A stretch of DNA of 64,000 nucleotides. Origin: an uncultured Thermoplasmata archaeon (GTDB lineage Archaea; Thermoplasmatota; Thermoplasmata; Lutacidiplasmatales; UBA184). Below the pieces are notes generated by a model. That model saw only the letters and a list, made by a program, of their open reading frames with translations. It was not told the origin of the DNA and made no database searches. Below, in pieces: positions 11,621-20,957 of this stretch (positions within the stretch are counted from its first letter, which is position 1; each line of letters opens with the position of its first letter). The position numbers and the translations under genes are program-made. The stretch covers positions 557,908-621,907 of the forward strand of contig CAVRCS010000004.1 in the NCBI GenBank assembly GCA_963719635.1. The letters run 5' to 3'.

Positions 11621-12386
11621 GTGCCCACGCGCGGCGCATGGGAGCGCTCCCGGCGCGCTGTGCTGGAGGTACGGCTACGCAGGCATCGGACGGAGCCGGC
11701 GGCGGAGGGCGTGGCTCTCGTGGAGCAGCGGCAAAGACGCAGCCTACTCGCTCGCGACCGTCCGGCGGGAAGGGACGGTCGACGTCGTCGGGCTGCTGAC
11801 GGTCGTGAGCGACCCGTTCGACCGCGTGTCGATGCACGGCGTCCGGGAAGAGCTGCTGGAGGCGCAGGCGGACGCCGTCGGCCTCCCGCTCCATACGGTC
11901 CGGATCCCGTATCCGTGCCCGAACGAGACGTACGAGCGGGCGATGGCGGCAGCCCTGGAGACCGCCGTGGCCGAAGGCGTGCGGGACGTTGTCTTCGGCG
12001 ACCTCTTCCTCAACGATGTCCGCGCCTACCGCGAGGACCGGCTCCGGCCGCTCGGCTTCCGGGCCCACTTTCCGCTCTGGGGCCGTCCGACCGGGGCGCT
12101 CGCGCGGGAGATGGTCCGTGCCGGAGTGCAGGCGACGATCTGCTGTTTGGACCCCCGCAAGCTGCCGCGGCGGTTCGCGGGCCGGCGGCTCGACGACGCC
12201 CTGCTGGACGAGCTTCCGCCGGAGGTAGACCCGTGCGGAGAGCGCGGTGAGTTCCACACGTTCGTGAGCGGCGGACCGGGGTTCGCCCGTCCCTTGGCCG
12301 TGCGGACCGGCGAGACGGTGGAGCGGGACGGGTTTGTCTTCACCGACCTGCTTGCGGCCGGAACGGCGGCGGCACCGCCGGCCTAG
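11621..12386 (+). CDS. PP-loop ATP pyrophosphatase of the Dph6 / MJ0570 (diphthine-ammonia ligase-like) family; frame-disrupted near the PP-loop
   Basis: The frame of ORF 11805..12386 extends upstream through WSSGKDAAYSL (an SGGKDS-type PP-loop) but has no ATG/GTG/TTG there. The neighbouring frame encodes GVALV immediately before the motif and has GTG starts at 11621 and 11660. The downstream sequence EFHTFV is typical of the family. The start is uncertain. Confidence 0.6.
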
Positions 12387-13323
12387 CGCCCGACCGGCGG
12401 ACTCGGCCCCTCGACCGTGGCGGCGAGAGCTTCGACAACCGCGTCGTCGTCGTTCGGCATCGGGACACGGTGGTAGTCGATCCCGTGGGCTTCCGCGAAC
12501 TCCCGGACGACCACGTCCAGGTCGTACAGGACCTCGAGGTGGTCGAAGACGAAGCCGAACGACGCCACGAGTTGGCTCCGCGCGCCCCGCTGCCGCCAAT
12601 CGAGCATCACGTCGTTGATGTCCGGCCCGAGCCACGCCTCGGTCGTGTTCCCCGCGCTCTGGTAGGTGAACGCCCAACGGGCGAGGTTCGCCGCACCGGC
12701 GATCGCCTCCGAGGTCTCGCGCAGCAGCGTCGGGTACGGGTCCCCCCGGTCGGCCATCCGCTGCGGCAGGCTGTGGGCGCTGAGAAGGACCGCCAGGTTC
12801 GGGTCGTCTAGGCGGCGGAGCTCGGCCGGGATCGCGTTGGCCCAGTATCCGATCCAGTGCGGGTCGAGGTGCCAGTCGAGTCGGAGGTCGACCTCCACGC
12901 GCGACCCTGCGGCCCGCTGGCCCTCCGCGACGCCCTCCCCGTACGGCTCGCCGATCCAGAGCGACGGGTAGGGGGTCGTCGCGACGGCGACCAGGCGCCG
13001 AACGCCGAGACGGGCCGCCTCCGGGATCACGTCGCGGATCGCGGGGTGCCCGTGCTTCACCCCGAGGAAGACCCGGCACCCGGCGTCGTGCGCGCGAGGC
13101 GTCGCTCCAGCTTCTCGCGGAGCGACGCGAGGATCTTCGGTTGCGGCGAGCCGCCGATCCGGTCGTACCGCCGCCGATACTCCGCGACCGTCTCCGCGGA
13201 GGGTGCCTTCCCGTGCATCACCTCGCCCAGGTACGCTTCCAGCTCGTCTCCGGAGCCGGGGCTGCCGTAGCCCATCAGCAGCACGCCGGAGTCGCCCTCG
13301 GTCGCCGACGGCCGTGAGGTCAT
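12383..13323 (-). CDS. hemH: Ferrochelatase (possibly coproporphyrin ferrochelatase); frame-disrupted near 13090
   Basis: The N-terminal part lies in ORF 13057..13581 (MTSRP...GVLLMGYGSPG). The C-terminal part lies in ORF 12383..13060 (LLSAHSLP with the His ligand, FVFDHLEVLYDLD). The alternate frame reads AHDAGCRVFLGVKHG across the junction. The 941-nt span is not a multiple of 3. Confidence 0.8.
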
Positions 13324-14353
13324 TGCGTGGACTCCGCGGCCCGGTGGACGAACTCGACGAGCTCGGCGACGCGGGCGGGGTCGGTCTCGGGGAGGACGCC
13401 GTGGCCTAAATTGAAGACGTGCGCACGACGGTCGGGATCTCTTGGAGGACCCGCCGCGCCTCGGCGCGGACGACCTCGGGGCCCGCGAGCAGGACCGCCG
13501 GGTCCAGGTTCCCCTGGAGCGCGAGGTGCGGTCCGACGCGGCGCCGGACGGCCCCGAGCGGCTCGCAGGCGTCGACCCCAAGGGCGTCGGCCCCGGTCCG
13601 CGCGAGGAGCTCGAGCAGCTGGGACGAGCCGGTGGAGAAGTAGATCGTCGGTCGGTGGAGAGGGCGGAGCGCGTCGAAGATCCGCTGCAGCGGGGCGAGG
13701 AGGTGGCGTTCGAACGGACCCGGGCCGAGGGCGCCGACCCAGGTGTCGAACAGCTGCAGTGCGGCCGCGCCCGCAGCGACCTGAAGCCGCAGGTAGTCGA
13801 TCGTCATCTCCGCGAGGCGGTCGATCAGCCGGTCGAACGTGCCGGGGTCGCGGTACAGCAGGCGCTTCGTCTCGACGAGCTCGCGGGAAGCGCGGCCCTC
13901 GATGAGGTACGACGCGAGCGTGAACGGCGCGCCGGCGAACCCGACGATCGGCCGGTCGTGCTCTTGCTCGAGGAACCGTTCGATCGCCCGGCCGACGTAC
14001 GGGACGTCGCGCGCCGCCGAGAACTCCGCCAGCCCGTCGACGTCGGCCCGGGTCCGCAGCGGCCGGGGAACGACGGGCCCCGTGCCGGGGTCGATCGAGA
14101 ACTCTACCCCCAGTCCCTCGAACGGGAGCGTGATGTCGGCGAAGACGACGGCGGCGTCGACGTCGTAGCGACGCAGCGGCTCGAGCGTCACCTCCGCCGC
14201 CAGCTCCGGGCTCCGGGCGATCTCCAGGATCGGGTGCTGGGCGCGGAGCGCTCGGTACCCCGGGAGATGGCGTCCGGCCTGACGCATCAGCCAAACCGGG
14301 GTCCGTTCGGGGACCTCGCCCCGCAGCGCCCGGAGGAGGTACGGCCGGGTCAT
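13320..14353 (-). CDS. hemE: Uroporphyrinogen decarboxylase; frame-disrupted near 13430
   Basis: PVWLMRQAGRHLPGY signature. The conserved C-terminal HVFNLGHGVLPETDP lies in the frame of ORF 13320..14294. Its TGA overlaps the hemH ATG (ATGA). Confidence 0.85.
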
Positions 14354-15660
14354 CGTCGCCGGCCGTTCGCCGCAGCGCGCATCGCGCGTCGGAACACCGG
14401 GGCCGTGCGGTCGAGGTCGGCCGGCCGCACCGCCGCCGAGACGAACGTCGTCTCTAGCGGGGACGGTGGAAGGTAGACGCCGCCGTCAAGCGCGGCGTGA
14501 AAGTACCGGGCGTACCGCCGGCGGTCCGAACGGGAGGCGTCCGCCTCGTCCTCGACAGGGCCGTCCGTGAAGAACGTCCCCACCATCGAGCCGGCCCGCT
14601 GGACCGTAAACGGGCCGGCGCGTTCCTGCTCTGCCTCCGACCGCAACGTCTCCTCCAACTGCGCCGCGGTGTGCTCGAGGGCCCGGTACGTCCGTGCGCT
14701 CAGCGCGTCCAGCGTCGCCGCGCCGGCGGCCATCGCCACCGGATTGCCGGAGAGGGTGCCGGCCTGATAGACGGGCCCCACCGGCGCCAGCTGCTCGAGG
14801 AGTTTCGCCCGGCCGCCGTAGGCGCCGACGGGCAGCCCGCCCCCGATGACCTTCGCGAGCGTGACGAGGTCGGCGTCCAGGCCCAGCTGGCGGTGGATCG
14901 TCCCGAGGCGCAGCCGAAAGCCGGTGATCACTTCGTCGGCGATCACCAGAGCGCCGTGCCGGTGGGCGACGGTTCCCACCGTCCTCAGGAACCCCGGCTT
15001 CGGTGGGACCACCCCCATGTTCCCGGGGACCGGTTCGACGAGGACCGCAGCGATGCGGCGACCCTCCCGCTCGAAGAGCCGCGCGAGGGCCTCCCCGTCG
15101 TTGAACGGAACGACCCGCGTGAGCGCGGCGACCGGTCCCGGAACTCCCGCCGACTCCGGGAGCCCGAGCGTCGACACGCCGGAGCCGGCCCGCGCGAGCA
15201 GGCCGTCCGAGTGGCCGTGGTAGCCGCCGGCGAACTTCACGACGAGGTCGCGCCCGGTTGCCCCGCGCGCGAGCCGAACGGCGCTCATCACCGCCTCCGT
15301 TCCGGAGCTGACGAACCGGATCCGCTCGAGCTCCGGACACCGGCGGCGGATCCGCTCCGCCAACTCGTGCTCCCGGGGCGACGGTGCGCCGAACGTGAGG
15401 CCGTCCCGGCTGGCGGCGCGGACGGCCCGGACGACCGTCGGGGGTGCGTGGCCGAGCAGCGCCGCCCCCCACGACCCGACCAGGTCGAGGTACCGACGGC
15501 CGTCCACGTCCTCGAGGAACGCCCCGCGGCCCCGCGCAAAGAAGACCGGCGTGCCGCCGACCGCGCGGAACGACCGGACCGGACTGTCGACGCCGCCGGG
15601 CAGGACCCGAACGGCCCGGCGCCAGGCGGCGCGCGACGCCGGCCCGGGGGCCCGTTTCAC
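14350..15660 (-). CDS. hemL: Glutamate-1-semialdehyde 2,1-aminomutase
   Basis: C-terminal 436 aa of ORF 14350..16527, from GTG 15660. Contains LPGGVDSPVRSF and the PLP-lysine context DLVTLAKVIGGGLP. Confidence 0.9.
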   Translation of the reverse strand: MKRAPGPASRAAWRRAVRVLPGGVDSPVRSFRAVGGTPVFFARGRGAFLEDVDGRRYLDLVGSWGAALLGHAPPTVVRAVRAASRDGLTFGAPSPREHELAERIRRRCPELERIRFVSSGTEAVMSAVRLARGATGRDLVVKFAGGYHGHSDGLLARAGSGVSTLGLPESAGVPGPVAALTRVVPFNDGEALARLFEREGRRIAAVLVEPVPGNMGVVPPKPGFLRTVGTVAHRHGALVIADEVITGFRLRLGTIHRQLGLDADLVTLAKVIGGGLPVGAYGGRAKLLEQLAPVGPVYQAGTLSGNPVAMAAGAATLDALSARTYRALEHTAAQLEETLRSEAEQERAGPFTVQRAGSMVGTFFTDGPVEDEADASRSDRRRYARYFHAALDGGVYLPPSPLETTFVSAAVRPADLDRTAPVFRRAMRAAANGRRR

Positions 15661-16377
15661 GGGATCCCTTCGGCCAGCTCGAGCGCGCGGGCCGGAGGAC
15701 TGAGGGCGCAGGTGAAGATCGGGGTCTCGAGCTGCGTGTAGCGGCTCGCCTCGGAGGGTCGCAGGTCGTGGACGAGGTCGAGGAATTCGGCCGCGGTCCG
15801 CTTCGAAGGCGAGGATGAACTCCGCGTCGTCCAGCCCGAACGAGTAGCCGGTGTGGATCTCCACGTCCGGGTACTTGTGTCCGATGCGCAGGTGTTCTCC
15901 CATGATGCGTCGGCGCTCCTCGAACGGGAGGCCGTACCACTCCCGCTTCTTCGTGAACGGGTAGACGAAGACGTACGGCCGGCCGCTCGCCTCGCGGCGG
16001 CCGGAGGAGCCCTCCCCGCCGACGGCGTGCGGGCCGACGTACTCGGAGATCCGGCCCATGCCCAGGTACGAGTGGCGGACGTCCAAGTATCCGCCCAGCG
16101 GGGAGCCCGCGATCTTCGCGTGCAGGATCGTGATCGGCTCGAGCTCGGAGGAGATCGACCAGACGAGCAGGTCGGCGTCCCCCTTCAGCCCGACGAGCGT
16201 GTACGTCCGCACGCGGACACCGGCCGGCGGATGGCTCAGGAGCTCGGCGAGGGCCGCCCGGCCCCGGCTCCGCTCGTCGAGCGGGAGCCTGCGCCACTCC
16301 GGACGGAGCTGATAGAACGTGTACTTCACGAAGTCCCGCGGCCCCTCGGAGTCGGGACCGTGCCGTGCGCCGCTCAC
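15657..16377 (-). CDS. hemQ: Chlorite-dismutase-like coproheme decarboxylase family protein (HemQ/ChdC-like); frame-disrupted near 15790
   Basis: KYTFYQL and YVFVYPFTKKREWYGLPFEERRRIMGEH. After AFEADR the sequence continues in another frame as AEFLDLVHDLRPSEASRYTQLETPIFTCALS...EGIP*. The GTG start overlaps the hemB stop, and its own stop overlaps the hemL GTG. Confidence 0.8.
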
Positions 16378-17393
16378 GCCGCCTCCCGGAGCCAGCGGGC
16401 GACGTCCCGGGCGTAGTAGCTGACGATCAGGTCCGCCCCCGCGCGTCGTATCGCTGTCAGGGTCTCGAGCACCGCGGCCCGTTCGTCGAACGCTCCCTGC
16501 CGCGCTCCGGCGTTCAGCATCGCGCACTCCCCGCTCACCTGGTAGGCGGCGAGCGGGACGTCGAACCGTCGGCGCGCACGGGCGAGCAGGTCGAGGCTCG
16601 TGAGCGCCGGTTTGACCATGAGGATGTCCGCCCCCTCCTCGGCGTCGAGCCGCATCTCCCGCATCGCCTCGCGGGCGTTGCGCGGGTCCATCTGGTACGT
16701 CGCCCGGTCCCCGAACGCCGGGGAGGAAGCTTCGGCGTCACGGAACGGCCCGTAGAGGGCGGACGCGTGCTTGGAGGCGTACGCGAGGATCGCGGTCGCA
16801 GAGGAGCCTGCGTCGTCCAGCGCGGCGCGGACCGCCGCGACCTGCCCGTCCATCATCGCGCTGGGTGCCACCACGTCGGCTCCCGCCTCGGCGTGGGCCG
16901 ACGCGACGCGGCCGAGGAGGGGAGTCGACGCGTCGTTGTCGACCTCGCCTCCCGCGACGGCGCCACAATGGCCGTGGGAGGTGTAGGCGCACAGACAGAC
17001 GTCGGTGACGACGATCAGCTCCGGCGCGGCCCGCTTCATCGCGCGGACCGCGAGCGCCACGGCTCCCCGGGGGGACCACGCCTCGGTGCCCACCGCGTCC
17101 TTGCGGCCGGCGGCGCCGAAGAGGAGCACCGCACGAACGCCTCCGTCGTAAAGGCCGCGAGCCAGCCGACCGACCGAGCCGACAGACTCCCAGGCGGCTC
17201 CCGGGATCGACCGAATCGGTTCGGGTCTACCGTTGCCGGGGCGAACGAAGACGGGGAGCACCAAGCGCCGGGCCTCGACGGACGTCTCGGCGACCCAGTC
17301 GCGCAGGGCGCCGGAGCGTCGGAGGCGCCGGGGTCGAACCCGAAGGGGCGCCCCACGGGAGCCGCCAGGGCGCGAGGGCCTACGGGCGGGCAT
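16374..17393 (-). CDS. hemB: Porphobilinogen synthase (delta-aminolevulinate dehydratase)
   Basis: Cys-rich metal site DVCLCAYTSHGHCG, Schiff-base lysine context ILMVKPAL, and YQVSGE. Confidence 0.9.
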   Translation of the reverse strand: MPARRPSRPGGSRGAPLRVRPRRLRRSGALRDWVAETSVEARRLVLPVFVRPGNGRPEPIRSIPGAAWESVGSVGRLARGLYDGGVRAVLLFGAAGRKDAVGTEAWSPRGAVALAVRAMKRAAPELIVVTDVCLCAYTSHGHCGAVAGGEVDNDASTPLLGRVASAHAEAGADVVAPSAMMDGQVAAVRAALDDAGSSATAILAYASKHASALYGPFRDAEASSPAFGDRATYQMDPRNAREAMREMRLDAEEGADILMVKPALTSLDLLARARRRFDVPLAAYQVSGECAMLNAGARQGAFDERAAVLETLTAIRRAGADLIVSYYARDVARWLREAA

Positions 17394-18141
17394 AGTTCAC
17401 GGCCCGGACGAGGTGACCGACTAAGCGTTGCGGGTCGGTACTTCGTGCCACCACGACCGTACGAAAGCCGGCACGGCGGGCGGCTCCCGCGCTTCGAGGG
17501 CCCAGCACCACGACCGGGACTTCCCCGCCCAGTGCCTTGAGCCGCAGGGGCCCGAGCCCCTCCCGGAGTGCCCCGAGCGCGGAAGGGCTCGTCACCAGGA
17601 GCGCTGCCGCCCCCGAAAGAGGAACCCGTCGCGCACGGAGAGCGGCCGGTCGTGTGCGGGTGCGGTATGCGACGATATCCACGACCGTATGGCCTCGTTG
17701 CCGGAGCGTCCGAGCGAGCTCCGTCCCCGCGAGGTCGGAGCGGAAGTAAACCAGCCTCCGCCGGGGCCCGGGGCCCAACCGTGCCGTGATCCCCGCGGCT
17801 CCCAGCTCCCGGCTCCCCCGGTGGACCCGGACCCCGAACCCGGCGAGAAGCCGAGCACTCCCCGGCCCTGCCGTCCAGACTTCCGGCGGGCCGTGGTTCG
17901 CGGCGAAGCGAAGCCAGTATCGAAACGCCGGCCCCACAGCCTGCCGGCTGGTCACGATCGCCGAGCCGTTCGCGGCCGTGGCGAGCCTCCGACGGAGCGC
18001 AGCGTCTAACGGGCGAGGTACTGCCTGAAGGACATCGACCCGGCGCAGCTCGACTCCCCGGGCACGGGCCGCTGCTCTCAGTCCCGGTAGTGCATCCCGG
18101 GAGGAGAGGAGGTAGACGGTGCGCCGACGGCCCCGCGCCAT
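17380..18141 (-). CDS. hemD: Uroporphyrinogen-III synthase
   Basis: 253 aa, positioned between hemC and hemB. Two-lobed pattern with VTSRQAV and LLVTSPSA, typical of HemD. Sequence signal is weaker than for its neighbours. Confidence 0.7.
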   Translation of the reverse strand: MARGRRRTVYLLSSRDALPGLRAAARARGVELRRVDVLQAVPRPLDAALRRRLATAANGSAIVTSRQAVGPAFRYWLRFAANHGPPEVWTAGPGSARLLAGFGVRVHRGSRELGAAGITARLGPGPRRRLVYFRSDLAGTELARTLRQRGHTVVDIVAYRTRTRPAALRARRVPLSGAAALLVTSPSALGALREGLGPLRLKALGGEVPVVVLGPRSAGAARRAGFRTVVVARSTDPQRLVGHLVRAVNYARP

Positions 18142-18147
18142 GTGCTC

Positions 18148-19056
18148 CTACCGCGGACTTCCCGAAAGAAGGGTGGCCGCCCCCAGTCGCAGCAGCGACC
18201 GTCCCAGCCGGGCACCGAGCGACGCAGCCCGGCCAGGCGGCCCGGCATCGCTCCCGCGCAGGCGGACCCGCCCGTCCGGAGAAAGTACCTCGCCCGTGAT
18301 CCGGATGCCCCGGGAACTGGCTCGGGCGAGCGCGGCGAGCGGCGTTCGGCAGTCCCCCCCCAGCGCGAGGGCGAACGAGCGCTCGGCGGTCACGGCCGCA
18401 TGGGTCGGACCGTGGTCCACGACCCGGAGGAGCCGTCGAAGTCGCCGGTCCCTGGACGACGCGACGAGCGCGAGCGCTCCCTGGGCCGGCGCCGGGAGGA
18501 ACTCGCTCAACGGGAGGGCGAGGCCGACCTCCTCCCCGCGGCCGAGTCGACGGACACCGGCGAGGGCGAGCGCCGCGGCGTCGAGCTTCCCTGCCCGGAC
18601 CTTCGCGATCCGACTGTCGACGTTGCCCCGCAGTTCTACCACCCGAAGGTCCGGCCTCCACCGCAACAACTGGGCCCGGCGCCGAAGGCTGCTGGAGCCG
18701 ACACGCGCCGCCGGCGGAAGGGCCGACGCAAAGCCGGGGCGTCGGACGACCAAGCAGTCCCGCGGGTCTGCCCGCCGGGGGCACGCGACCAGCTCGAGAC
18801 CATCCGCGAGCGTCAGCGGGAGGTCCTTTGCGCTGTGGACGGCCAGGTCGACCTCCCCGCGGAGGAGCGCCCGGTCGATCGCATCGGTAAAGTCGGGGGA
18901 GCCCCCGGGGGCGAGGTCGCGGTCCCCGGTAGTCACCAGGGGAACCGGCTCGAAGTCGATCCCGTGGTGACGGCGGGCGAGGACCCGGAGGACGAGCGTG
19001 GTCTGCGCGAGCGCGAGGGGGCTTCGCCGCGTCCCGACGCGGATGCGCGGGGTCAC
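18148..19056 (-). CDS. hemC: Hydroxymethylbilane synthase (porphobilinogen deaminase)
   Basis: RIRVGTRRSPLALAQT N-terminus and 302-aa length. GTG start in a GTGA overlap with the inferred hemA stop. Confidence 0.9.
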   Translation of the reverse strand: MTPRIRVGTRRSPLALAQTTLVLRVLARRHHGIDFEPVPLVTTGDRDLAPGGSPDFTDAIDRALLRGEVDLAVHSAKDLPLTLADGLELVACPRRADPRDCLVVRRPGFASALPPAARVGSSSLRRRAQLLRWRPDLRVVELRGNVDSRIAKVRAGKLDAAALALAGVRRLGRGEEVGLALPLSEFLPAPAQGALALVASSRDRRLRRLLRVVDHGPTHAAVTAERSFALALGGDCRTPLAALARASSRGIRITGEVLSPDGRVRLRGSDAGPPGRAASLGARLGRSLLRLGAATLLSGSPR

Positions 19057-20335
19057 GGCTCGGCCCCGTCGGGCCGCCAGAGGTCCAGGGCGAACCGGCG
19101 GAGCCGATCCCCTCCTCTCCCGGCGGGATCCGGCGGAGCCGTTCGGTCGGCGTGCGGAGCAGGCGCTCGGTCAGCCGACGCGTGAGTCGGTCGATCGCCG
19201 CCTCCTGATCGGGGCCGAGCTGGCCGAGGAAACGGTGCGCGAGGTCGAGTTCGGCCCGGCGCATCGCCTCGACCTCCCGCCGGACGTGCGCGATCCACGG
19301 CTCGAGAGCGGCCGCTTCGACTCGGCTGTACGCTAGGCCCGCCGCTGCGTCGAGCAGCGGCTCGATGGGGTCGTCCCGGGTTCGTCGGCTGGCGGAGCGC
19401 AGGTCCTCCAGGTCGACGAGTCGGACCCGGGAGAGGTCCCGGACCGCCGGGTCGACGTTCCGTGGCATCCCCAGGTCCACGAGCAGAACATCCCGGTCGA
19501 CGGAGAGGTCGGCGGGACCGAGGGTGCGCTCTCCGCTCTTCGTGGCGGTGACGACCGCATCCGATAGGGCGACCTCCGCCGCGAGCTCACCGGTCCGGAC
19601 GGCGCGGGCGCCGGTGGCTCGTAGGAACGCCTCGTCGGGCCCCCGATGCCGGTAGACGATCGTGACCCGGGCCGACGGGGAGAGTAGCTCCGCGACGGCC
19701 CGCCCCACGGCGCCCGCCCCGACCACCAGGACGCGGGGGAACGGCCGGCCGGAGAGCTCGAGAACCTTCGTCGCTGCGACCGCCGCGATGGAGCAGGACG
19801 CCGGCACCGACGGGGCGATCGTGTCCGCCGCAGCCGCCGCGTCCTCGAAGAGCCCGCGCAGCAGGCGCTGGCGGTGCCGGCTCAGGGTCGCACGCCCTGC
19901 GGAACGAACCTGGTGGCGGACCTCCCGCTCGCCGACCACCATCGACTCCCGGCCTGCGGCGACCCGGAAGAGGTGGGCGACCGCATCGCGGCCCGTGCGC
20001 TCGCGCCATGGTTCGCTGCACGCCGCGAGGTCGGCCCTCCACCCGTCGACCGCTTCCGCCCTCCGGGCAACCATCACCAGCTCCCGACGGGAGCACGTCG
20101 CCAGCAGCGCCGCCTCCTCGGTTCCTGCGTGCTGCGCAAAGCGGTCGGCGAACCAGCTCCCGTCCACGCGCCGCGCCAGCGCGTCCAGCGCGTCCAAGGA
20201 CGCGGTGGCGAGGCTGAACTCAAAGCTCGCGAGGATAAGGGCGGCCGGCTCGGATCCGGAAGCTCCGGCGCGCGGCTCCGTCGCCACGCGCCCGGGGCTC
20301 CGCGCCACAGCGCGGGGCAGCGGCACCGCCGGCAT
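19053..20335 (-). CDS. hemA: Glutamyl-tRNA reductase; frame-disrupted near 19110
   Basis: N-terminal 409 aa of ORF 17036..20335. Catalytic-Cys context LATCSRRELV and NADPH fold VLVVGAGAVGRAV. The frame with DRLRRFALDLWRPDGAEP* ends at TGA 19053, overlapping the hemC GTG. The 1283-nt span is not a multiple of 3. Confidence 0.8.
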
Positions 20336-20516: not shown

Positions 20517-20957
20517 GTGGCCGCAGGCTCCTCTCGCTCCCCGCCGGACGTCGCCGCGATGCTGGGCAAGGCTCCGATCTTTTCCGCCCTGAGCGAGCGG
20601 CAGTTGCGGTCGCTGGCGAAGACCGCCAAGGTCGTCGCGTACCCTACGGACACGCGGATCGTCAAGCAGGGCGAACCCGGGATCGGCCTCTACCTGCTGC
20701 TCGACGGCGAGGCGGAGGTCCGGCGGGGCGACCGGATCCTGGCGAAGCTCGGCGCCGGCCAGTTCTTTGGAGAGATGACGCTCTTGGACGAGCAGCCACG
20801 CTCCGCGGACGTCGTCGCGGTAATGCCGTCCGAGTGCGCCGTCCTCTCGCGGTGGGAGTTCTGGGGTTTCGCGAAGGGCGAGCCGGAGGTCCTGCAGGGC
20901 GTCATGCGCGAGATGGCACGCCGGCTGCGCGAGACCAACCGCGCGCTCTCGGAATAG
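20517..20957 (+). CDS. Stand-alone cyclic-nucleotide-binding (CAP/Crp effector) domain protein
   Basis: PIFSALSERQL...GEPGIGLYLLLDGEAEV...GQFFGEMTLLDEQPRSADVVA is a classic cNMP-binding beta-barrel signature. No HTH domain follows. Confidence 0.8.
   Translation: MAAGSSRSPPDVAAMLGKAPIFSALSERQLRSLAKTAKVVAYPTDTRIVKQGEPGIGLYLLLDGEAEVRRGDRILAKLGAGQFFGEMTLLDEQPRSADVVAVMPSECAVLSRWEFWGFAKGEPEVLQGVMREMARRLRETNRALSE

Follow-up and report, generated by a model that had tools for sequence, protein, structure and literature searches.

A lineage-wide operon for a predicted coproporphyrin-dependent haem pathway in Lutacidiplasmatales-type Thermoplasmata archaea

The window and its haem operon

The DNA analysed here (hereafter the window) is a stretch of 64,000 nucleotides, spanning positions 557908-621907 of contig C4 of genome G000, an assembly of 1.83 Mb in five contigs with a GC content of about 71%. 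G000 is the source genome of the window, and all other G labels refer to genomes of relatives that were compared with it. On the minus strand of the window, from 20335 to 12383, lie eight genes in the order hemA-hemC-hemD-hemB-hemQ-hemL-hemE-hemH. We hold with good confidence that they represent a native and functional operon for haem b biosynthesis by the coproporphyrin-dependent route in a Lutacidiplasmatales-type archaeon, and that the frameshifts found in them are assembly indels. The description of the Lutacidiplasmatales reports complex IV, ctaA and ctaB; porphyrin and chlorite dismutase go unmentioned in its main text, and the haem passages found there do not concern the haem b route (PMC9287336). 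A full-length archaeal 16S rRNA gene (1472 bits) is present in the G000 assembly, which bears out the archaeal context that an earlier reading of the letters alone (the sequence-only reading) had claimed for the operon. The organism is a Lutacidiplasmatales-type soil Thermoplasmata archaeon.

Late enzymes and the predicted route to haem b

The coproporphyrin-dependent pathway of Firmicutes and Actinobacteria runs through UroD, CgoX, CpfC and ChdC, and Bacillus subtilis has the operons hemAXCDBL and hemEHY. Enzymes of this branch had been recognised in the window by the sequence-only reading, and UroD, a CpfC-type ferrochelatase and a ChdC-type protein of the chlorite dismutase (Cld) family are indeed all encoded. 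The UroD that the route calls for is HemE, which gives 337 bits on the URO-D profile in the window, the intact HemE of a relative reaching 366 bits on TIGR01464 (cut-off 303). HemH scores 169 bits on TIGR00109 (cut-off 125). The best solved matches of a relative's intact HemH are the coproporphyrin ferrochelatases of Bacillus and Listeria (162-176 bits), human ferrochelatase giving about 60 bits, and HemH is accordingly classed, as far as sequence comparison can tell, as CpfC-type rather than as a protoporphyrin ferrochelatase. For orthologous HemQ proteins, the best matches among solved structures are coproheme decarboxylases (98 and 80 bits). Conserved in HemQ are the VYPF..K..WY tyrosine motif, the proximal histidine within MGEH and a distal histidine of the actinobacterial type, at the alignment position of His118 in the enzyme from Corynebacterium. 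The tyrosine and the distal residues had been singled out for inspection once the reading frame was repaired, and both the tyrosine motif and the distal histidine are present. These features argue for a ChdC-type protein.

Searches for the siroheme-dependent (Ahb) route, which the sequence-only reading had proposed to extend to the whole genome, found none of its components. AhbA/B (PF17805) was detected in 0 of 61 genomes of the genus, the controls Haloferax, Sulfolobus and Methanosarcina giving matches. Genus tallies (n = 61) take in the unpublished genome G031, and class tallies take in G162 and G268, likewise unpublished; no claim is based on these genomes alone. SUMT was not found in G000, as the sole TP_methylase of this genome is the diphthine synthase Dph5 (TIGR00522, 161 bits). 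Neither was an AhbC- or AhbD-like gene found in G000, where the best NirJ2/AhbD-like match is a generic radical SAM protein (E 9e-12, 114 positions). The combination of HemF or HemN with HemY, HemG or HemJ that marks the protoporphyrin-dependent route was also not found in G000. Taken together, the lack of AhbA/B in the genus and of SUMT and AhbD-like genes in G000, the CpfC-type HemH and the ChdC-type HemQ point to the coproporphyrin-dependent route.

G000 encodes COX1 (C1:467004-468356) with CtaA adjoining, and the route encoded by the operon, of coproporphyrin type, is predicted to feed an aerobic respiratory chain comprising this haem-copper oxidase and CtaA. In the proposed scheme, with activities assigned from protein similarity, HemA, HemL, HemB, HemC and HemD would convert glutamyl-tRNA to uroporphyrinogen III, from which HemE would form coproporphyrinogen III. 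Oxidation of the latter to coproporphyrin III would proceed by an unrecognised enzyme or by none. The CpfC-type HemH would then insert iron to yield coproheme, and the ChdC-type HemQ would decarboxylate coproheme to haem b, which would serve CtaA and the haem-copper oxidase.

Organization of the operon

Boundaries of all genes were re-read directly from the sequence. The chain of overlaps described in the sequence-only reading was recovered as such: GTGA or ATGA overlaps of 4 nt, one 14-nt overlap between hemD and hemB and a single 6-nt gap between hemC and hemD. The start/stop overlaps imply one transcript and translational coupling, so that the eight genes, which had been taken for a single unit, are best described from their junctions as a tightly coupled and probably co-transcribed operon. 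Pfam families GlutR, HEM4, ALAD, Chlor_dismutase, Aminotran_3, URO-D and Ferrochelatase were identified on the minus strand, and hemC was confirmed by NCBIfam.

The first gene, hemA (glutamyl-tRNA reductase), extends from 20335 (ATG) to 19053 (TGA), matches Pfam GlutR_N, Shikimate_DH and GlutR_dimer and scores 137 bits on TIGR01035. It is followed by hemC (hydroxymethylbilane synthase; 19056, GTG, to 18148, TAG), which is intact, shares a GTGA overlap with the hemA stop and scores 258 bits on TIGR00212 (cut-off 164). Next, after the 6-nt gap, comes an intact hemD (uroporphyrinogen-III synthase; 18141, ATG, to 17380, TAG; Pfam HEM4 81.7 bits, cut-off 27.5), whose end overlaps by 14 nt the likewise intact hemB (porphobilinogen synthase; 17393, ATG, to 16374, TGA; ALAD 425 bits; NF006762 425 bits, cut-off 297). 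The gene hemQ/chdC, for the putative coproheme decarboxylase of the Cld family (Pfam PF06778), runs from 16377 (GTG) to 15657 (TGA), begins in a GTGA overlap and contains one frameshift. Its stop lies in a GTGA overlap with hemL (glutamate-1-semialdehyde 2,1-aminomutase; 15660, GTG, to 14350, TGA), which is intact and gives 561 bits on NF000818 (cut-off 398). The operon closes with hemE (uroporphyrinogen decarboxylase; 14353, ATG, to 13320, TGA) and hemH (the predicted CpfC-type ferrochelatase; 13323, ATG, to 12383, TAG; Pfam Ferrochelatase), both of them starting in an ATGA overlap and both with one frameshift.

Divergently from hemA, a 146-aa stand-alone protein with a cyclic nucleotide monophosphate (cNMP)-binding domain is encoded on the plus strand (20517-20957). 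It matches the N-terminal sensor part of CRP only (55.6 bits) and is not a conserved neighbour of the operon in other species.

Frameshifts in the operon

The gene chain exists only after reading through four single frameshifts, in hemA, hemQ, hemE and hemH. That hemQ requires frame repair had been stated in the sequence-only reading; the shifts in the three other genes had not been mentioned. All were placed by comparison with intact orthologs of the same genus. The hemA shift lies near 19109-19111, some 19 codons ahead of the stop, and the C-terminus read in the other frame matches the C-termini of relatives. In hemQ, the shift is near 15792-15796; PF06778 covers profile positions 6-157 only in the raw frame, and the last 44 codons, in the other frame, are 68-80% identical to relatives. 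A 725-aa open reading frame (ORF) that fuses hemQ and hemL in the raw sequence is a false product of this shift. The shift in hemE is near 13433-13436, directly before the conserved HVFNLGHG motif, with URO-D profile positions 5-311 in one frame and 316-345 in another, and hemH is shifted at about 13081, with Ferrochelatase profile positions 2-84 and 95-314 in two frames; for both genes, tblastn with the proteins of relatives agrees.

For a genome-wide estimate of such shifts, ORFs from 410 kb of G011, a relative that is 99% complete, were aligned to G000. At least 24 frame changes were found in G000 within 193.5 kb aligned to G011 proteins. The reverse test over 188.5 kb of G011 yielded one event, itself caused by the false hemQ-hemL fusion of G000, and no genuine shift. 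Applied to the operon, the same detector registers 2 shifts over roughly 7 kb, some 0.8 being expected (P ~0.2), an excess that is not significant. As such shifts occur throughout G000 and are absent from its relative G011, the four in the operon are most likely, on this comparison of assemblies, indel errors of an error-prone and probably long-read assembly, and not gene decay. Other long-read metagenome-assembled genomes of the lineage have splits in different genes of the operon (hemL, hemA, hemC). Because G000 is rich in indels, any 'pseudogene' in it needs checking at the level of the reads.

Three of the 24 shifts fall outside the window in rpoB, identified by NCBIfam as the archaeal RNA polymerase subunit B (G000:C4:300849-301885). 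Another, divergent gene of the COX1 family, likewise outside the window, is matched in two overlapping pieces (G000:C4:8911-9782; profile positions 1-125 and 114-269), probably split by another frameshift of the same kind.

An alternative is that the shifts are real, that the operon is decaying and that its host is on the way to haem auxotrophy, as in the third of the genus without the operon. Presence and absence of the operon change state at least 7-9 times on the coxA tree, and about 20 of the 61 genus genomes are without hemB, hemQ and hemH yet carry COX1. This loss of the operon in relatives leaves room for real decay, and four frameshifts in 8 kb are on the high side. To these points, which weigh against the functional coproporphyrin operon that we favour, must be added that HemQ attains 138 bits on NCBIfam HemQ_actino, below the equivalog cut-off of 235, and that the searches reported below found no enzyme to convert coproporphyrinogen III into coproporphyrin III. 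Decay is nevertheless unlikely. Shifts of the same kind affect the essential rpoB and occur at a rate of at least 24 per 194 kb overall in G000, with none in G011; beyond the shifts themselves, the operon genes show no internal stop in frame, no deletion and no lost conserved motif, and the shifts in the operon do not exceed significantly the number expected. Selective decay of the coproporphyrin branch, restricted to hemQ, hemE and hemH, was rejected in view of the fourth shift, in hemA, and of the genome-wide excess that includes rpoB. A comparison of the operon flanks with G002 and G011, considered as a local gauge of frameshifting, was dropped as the flanks are not syntenic.

Conservation and origin of the operon

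Species-representative genomes were scanned with six HemQ sequences of the genus, and 76 loci were obtained. All but one (75 of 76) bear the title 'Thermoplasmata archaeon' or Candidatus Lutacidiplasma silvani, the remaining one being titled only 'bacterium'. Nearly all of the 76 loci have the eight-gene order, with HemQ identity down to about 57%; next come four Nitrospirota loci (46-50% HemQ identity), which are without it. In a second Thermoplasmata family, f27, the order hemA-hemC ... hemB-hemQ-hemL-hemE-hemH is kept, hemD not being detected in that operon by tblastn. Within the class, HemH is found together with HemQ in every family that looks aerobic, namely f1 (the family of this lineage), f10, f20 (33/33 genomes), f27 and f29, of which f20 would correspond to the Thermoplasmatales.

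The phylogenetic analysis that the sequence-only reading had proposed was carried out for HemQ. In the tree, family f1 forms one clade (Shimodaira-Hasegawa-like approximate likelihood ratio test, SH-aLRT, 99) and stands with moderate support beside f27, then f29 and f24, within a wider radiation that includes bacterial sequences; f20 is far away and f10 elsewhere. The nearest labelled bacterial HemQ proteins are those of Rubrobacteraceae (47%), Nitrospirota (46-50%) and Poribacteria, overall at 41-50% identity. A protein homologue search returned only close relatives (71-100% identity) and no outgroups. Atlas matches gave broad bacterial leads only.

The sequence-only reading had allowed that the gene set may be lineage-typical, and in this it was right: the order is found across the 76 species-level genomes and in a second family, and there is a precedent in Picrophilus and Thermoplasma (PMC3004389). 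Its further suggestion of a notable bacterial acquisition is not sustained. Recent import from a Gram-positive or other bacterium could be argued from the bacterial origin of the nearest labelled HemQ outside the Thermoplasmata, from the resemblance of HemH to Bacillus CpfC and from flanks that are not syntenic between species. It is, however, very unlikely, as the operon has a native GC content (72-75% against about 71% for the genome), the HemQ proteins of the family form a single clade beside those of other Thermoplasmata families, the Nitrospirota loci do not have the eight-gene order and the operon is spread over 76 species with HemQ identities as low as those given above. We therefore regard the operon as old and typical of its lineage, not as a recent import; an ancient inter-domain transfer is plausible.

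Other readings of the Cld-family protein

Residue 13 after the proximal histidine of HemQ is histidine, not arginine, and is invariant in six orthologs and the window. We take this position, from residue numbers in the literature and not from an alignment, to be that of the catalytic arginine of Nitrospira Cld (His160/Arg173) and of Gln187 of Listeria ChdC. The label 'chlorite dismutase family' in Pfam and public annotations might suggest a genuine chlorite dismutase or a peroxidase with no part in haem synthesis, but either is extremely improbable given this histidine at the presumed arginine position, the conserved ChdC tyrosine motif, solved ChdCs as best matches and the location of hemQ inside the haem operon at every locus examined. 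We give hardly any credence either to a hybrid route in which the Cld-like protein, as for Haloferax PitA, would replace AhbD aerobically as the last enzyme of the siroheme-dependent pathway, an arrangement proposed for haloarchaea (PMC5746218), as AhbA/B is missing from all 61 genus genomes, SUMT and AhbC/D-like genes are missing from G000, and UroD and a CpfC-type ferrochelatase share the operon with hemQ.

The oxidase step and a second haem module

The sequence-only reading had noted that the window is without cgoX/hemY, and profile searches extend this correct observation to the whole 1.83-Mb assembly. In G000, TIGR00562 and PF01593 match only an FAD-binding N-terminal motif of about 30-75 residues, and no full-length HemY/CgoX was found; HemY is present in only 7 of the 61 genus genomes. 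For CgoN (PF07285), 0 of 5 genomes gave a match, 99-100% complete ones included. HemN_C, HemG and HemJ (PF06969, PF12724, PF03653) had no match in G000 and, in the four relatives searched, nothing above cut-off, HemF (PF01218) gave none in G000, the only genome searched for it, and a CopD-like membrane protein that is a candidate oxidase in some congeners was not found in G000, G011, G017 or G069. Thus, with the same restriction for HemF, seven known or candidate families of porphyrinogen oxidases or dehydrogenases have no match above cut-off in G000 or in the near-complete relatives searched. A conserved extra gene beside the operon was also considered as candidate and rejected, no flanking family occurring in more than 14 of the 76 loci.

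Storbeck et al. (2010) had described Picrophilus and Thermoplasma as having hemE and hemH, no hemF, hemN, hemG or hemY and no ahb genes, and termed the route 'unclear' (PMC3004389). The gap at the oxidase step is hence not new; what is added here is that it is the rule across the present lineage.

In at least eight loci which reach well past hemE, hemH is out of the operon and is found in a second locus. This second module consists in some congeners of a radical SAM enzyme (TIGR04053 family, AhbD-like), hemH and hemY, and in others of a radical SAM enzyme, a 168-aa CopD-family membrane protein and hemH. The second-module loci are L136, L137 and L126 (G043, G070, G002), together with L204 (3133-3636, minus strand) and L205-L209 (G062, G064, G018, G052, G048, G040). 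None of the nine loci examined has both hemY and the CopD-like gene, and this mutual exclusivity supports the CopD-like protein as a candidate oxidase; G000 has neither module. In G005, whose working hemH is in the second module, the N-terminal part of hemH survives on the main operon contig as a weak relic that contains a TAG in frame (C17:26809-27015).

Loss of the operon within the genus

Within the genus, HemQ is present in 34, HemH in 36 and ALAD in 38 of the 61 genomes, and their presence varies together. COX1 is found in 54 of 61 genomes and in 20 of the 20 of high quality. With COX1 near-universal and the hem genes patchy, some 20 genomes, of which several are 90-95% complete, have a haem-copper oxidase and no tetrapyrrole pathway, neither hemB, hemQ and hemH nor AhbA/B being found; they are candidate haem auxotrophs. 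The number of state changes of the operon on the coxA tree is a rough count, since that tree and the hemB-hemQ tree disagree at several nodes with strong support, owing either to exchange of one of the two loci within the genus or to chimeric bins. Among 23 genus genomes, coxA supports the groups (G017,G046) and (G052,G070), and the hem tree supports (G039,G042,G056,G070) and (G018,G052). Both trees place the G000 operon with the operons of G062 and G064.

Discussion

The operon of the window appears to be real, functional and fairly ordinary, and it fits an exception known since 2010. With the pathway of Firmicutes and Actinobacteria it shares the trunk enzymes, UroD, a predicted soluble CpfC of the Bacillus type and a putative ChdC with the tyrosine, the proximal histidine and a distal histidine of actinobacterial type, but CgoX, CgoN and hemX are not found here and the host is an archaeon. 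Unlike the hem operons of Bacillus subtilis, it unites eight genes in a single operon and has hemQ between hemB and hemL. Thermoplasma and Picrophilus (PMC3004389) belong to the same archaeal class, share the gene set and likewise have no recognised oxidase for the same step, but their genes are scattered, whereas those described here lie in one complete operon. HemQ of the lineage is 26-31% identical to that of f20, from which it is far in the tree, and matches the T. acidophilum ChdC structure 3DTZ with 56 bits only. With the Ahb pathway of most archaea, the route has in common the trunk to uroporphyrinogen III and coproheme as last intermediate; it differs in that AhbA/B, AhbC, AhbD and SUMT are not found in G000 and in that iron would be inserted by a HemH-type chelatase.

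A complete lineage-wide operon is thereby added to a known exception, that of aerobic Thermoplasmata making haem by the coproporphyrin and not the Ahb route. For the window itself, the practical message is that its broken hem genes are most probably assembly artefacts. Beyond this, we tentatively suggest that most of the lineage, G000 included, may finish the coproporphyrin route with an oxidase of an unrecognised type or with no enzyme, and that, separately, the operon, as the only tetrapyrrole pathway, may have been lost repeatedly in aerobic congeners, which would then be haem auxotrophs living on the haem of their neighbours. These genomes are good material for finding the missing coproporphyrinogen oxidase, and the scattered disappearance of the entire operon from congeners that have an oxidase suggests that soil archaea cross-feed on haem.

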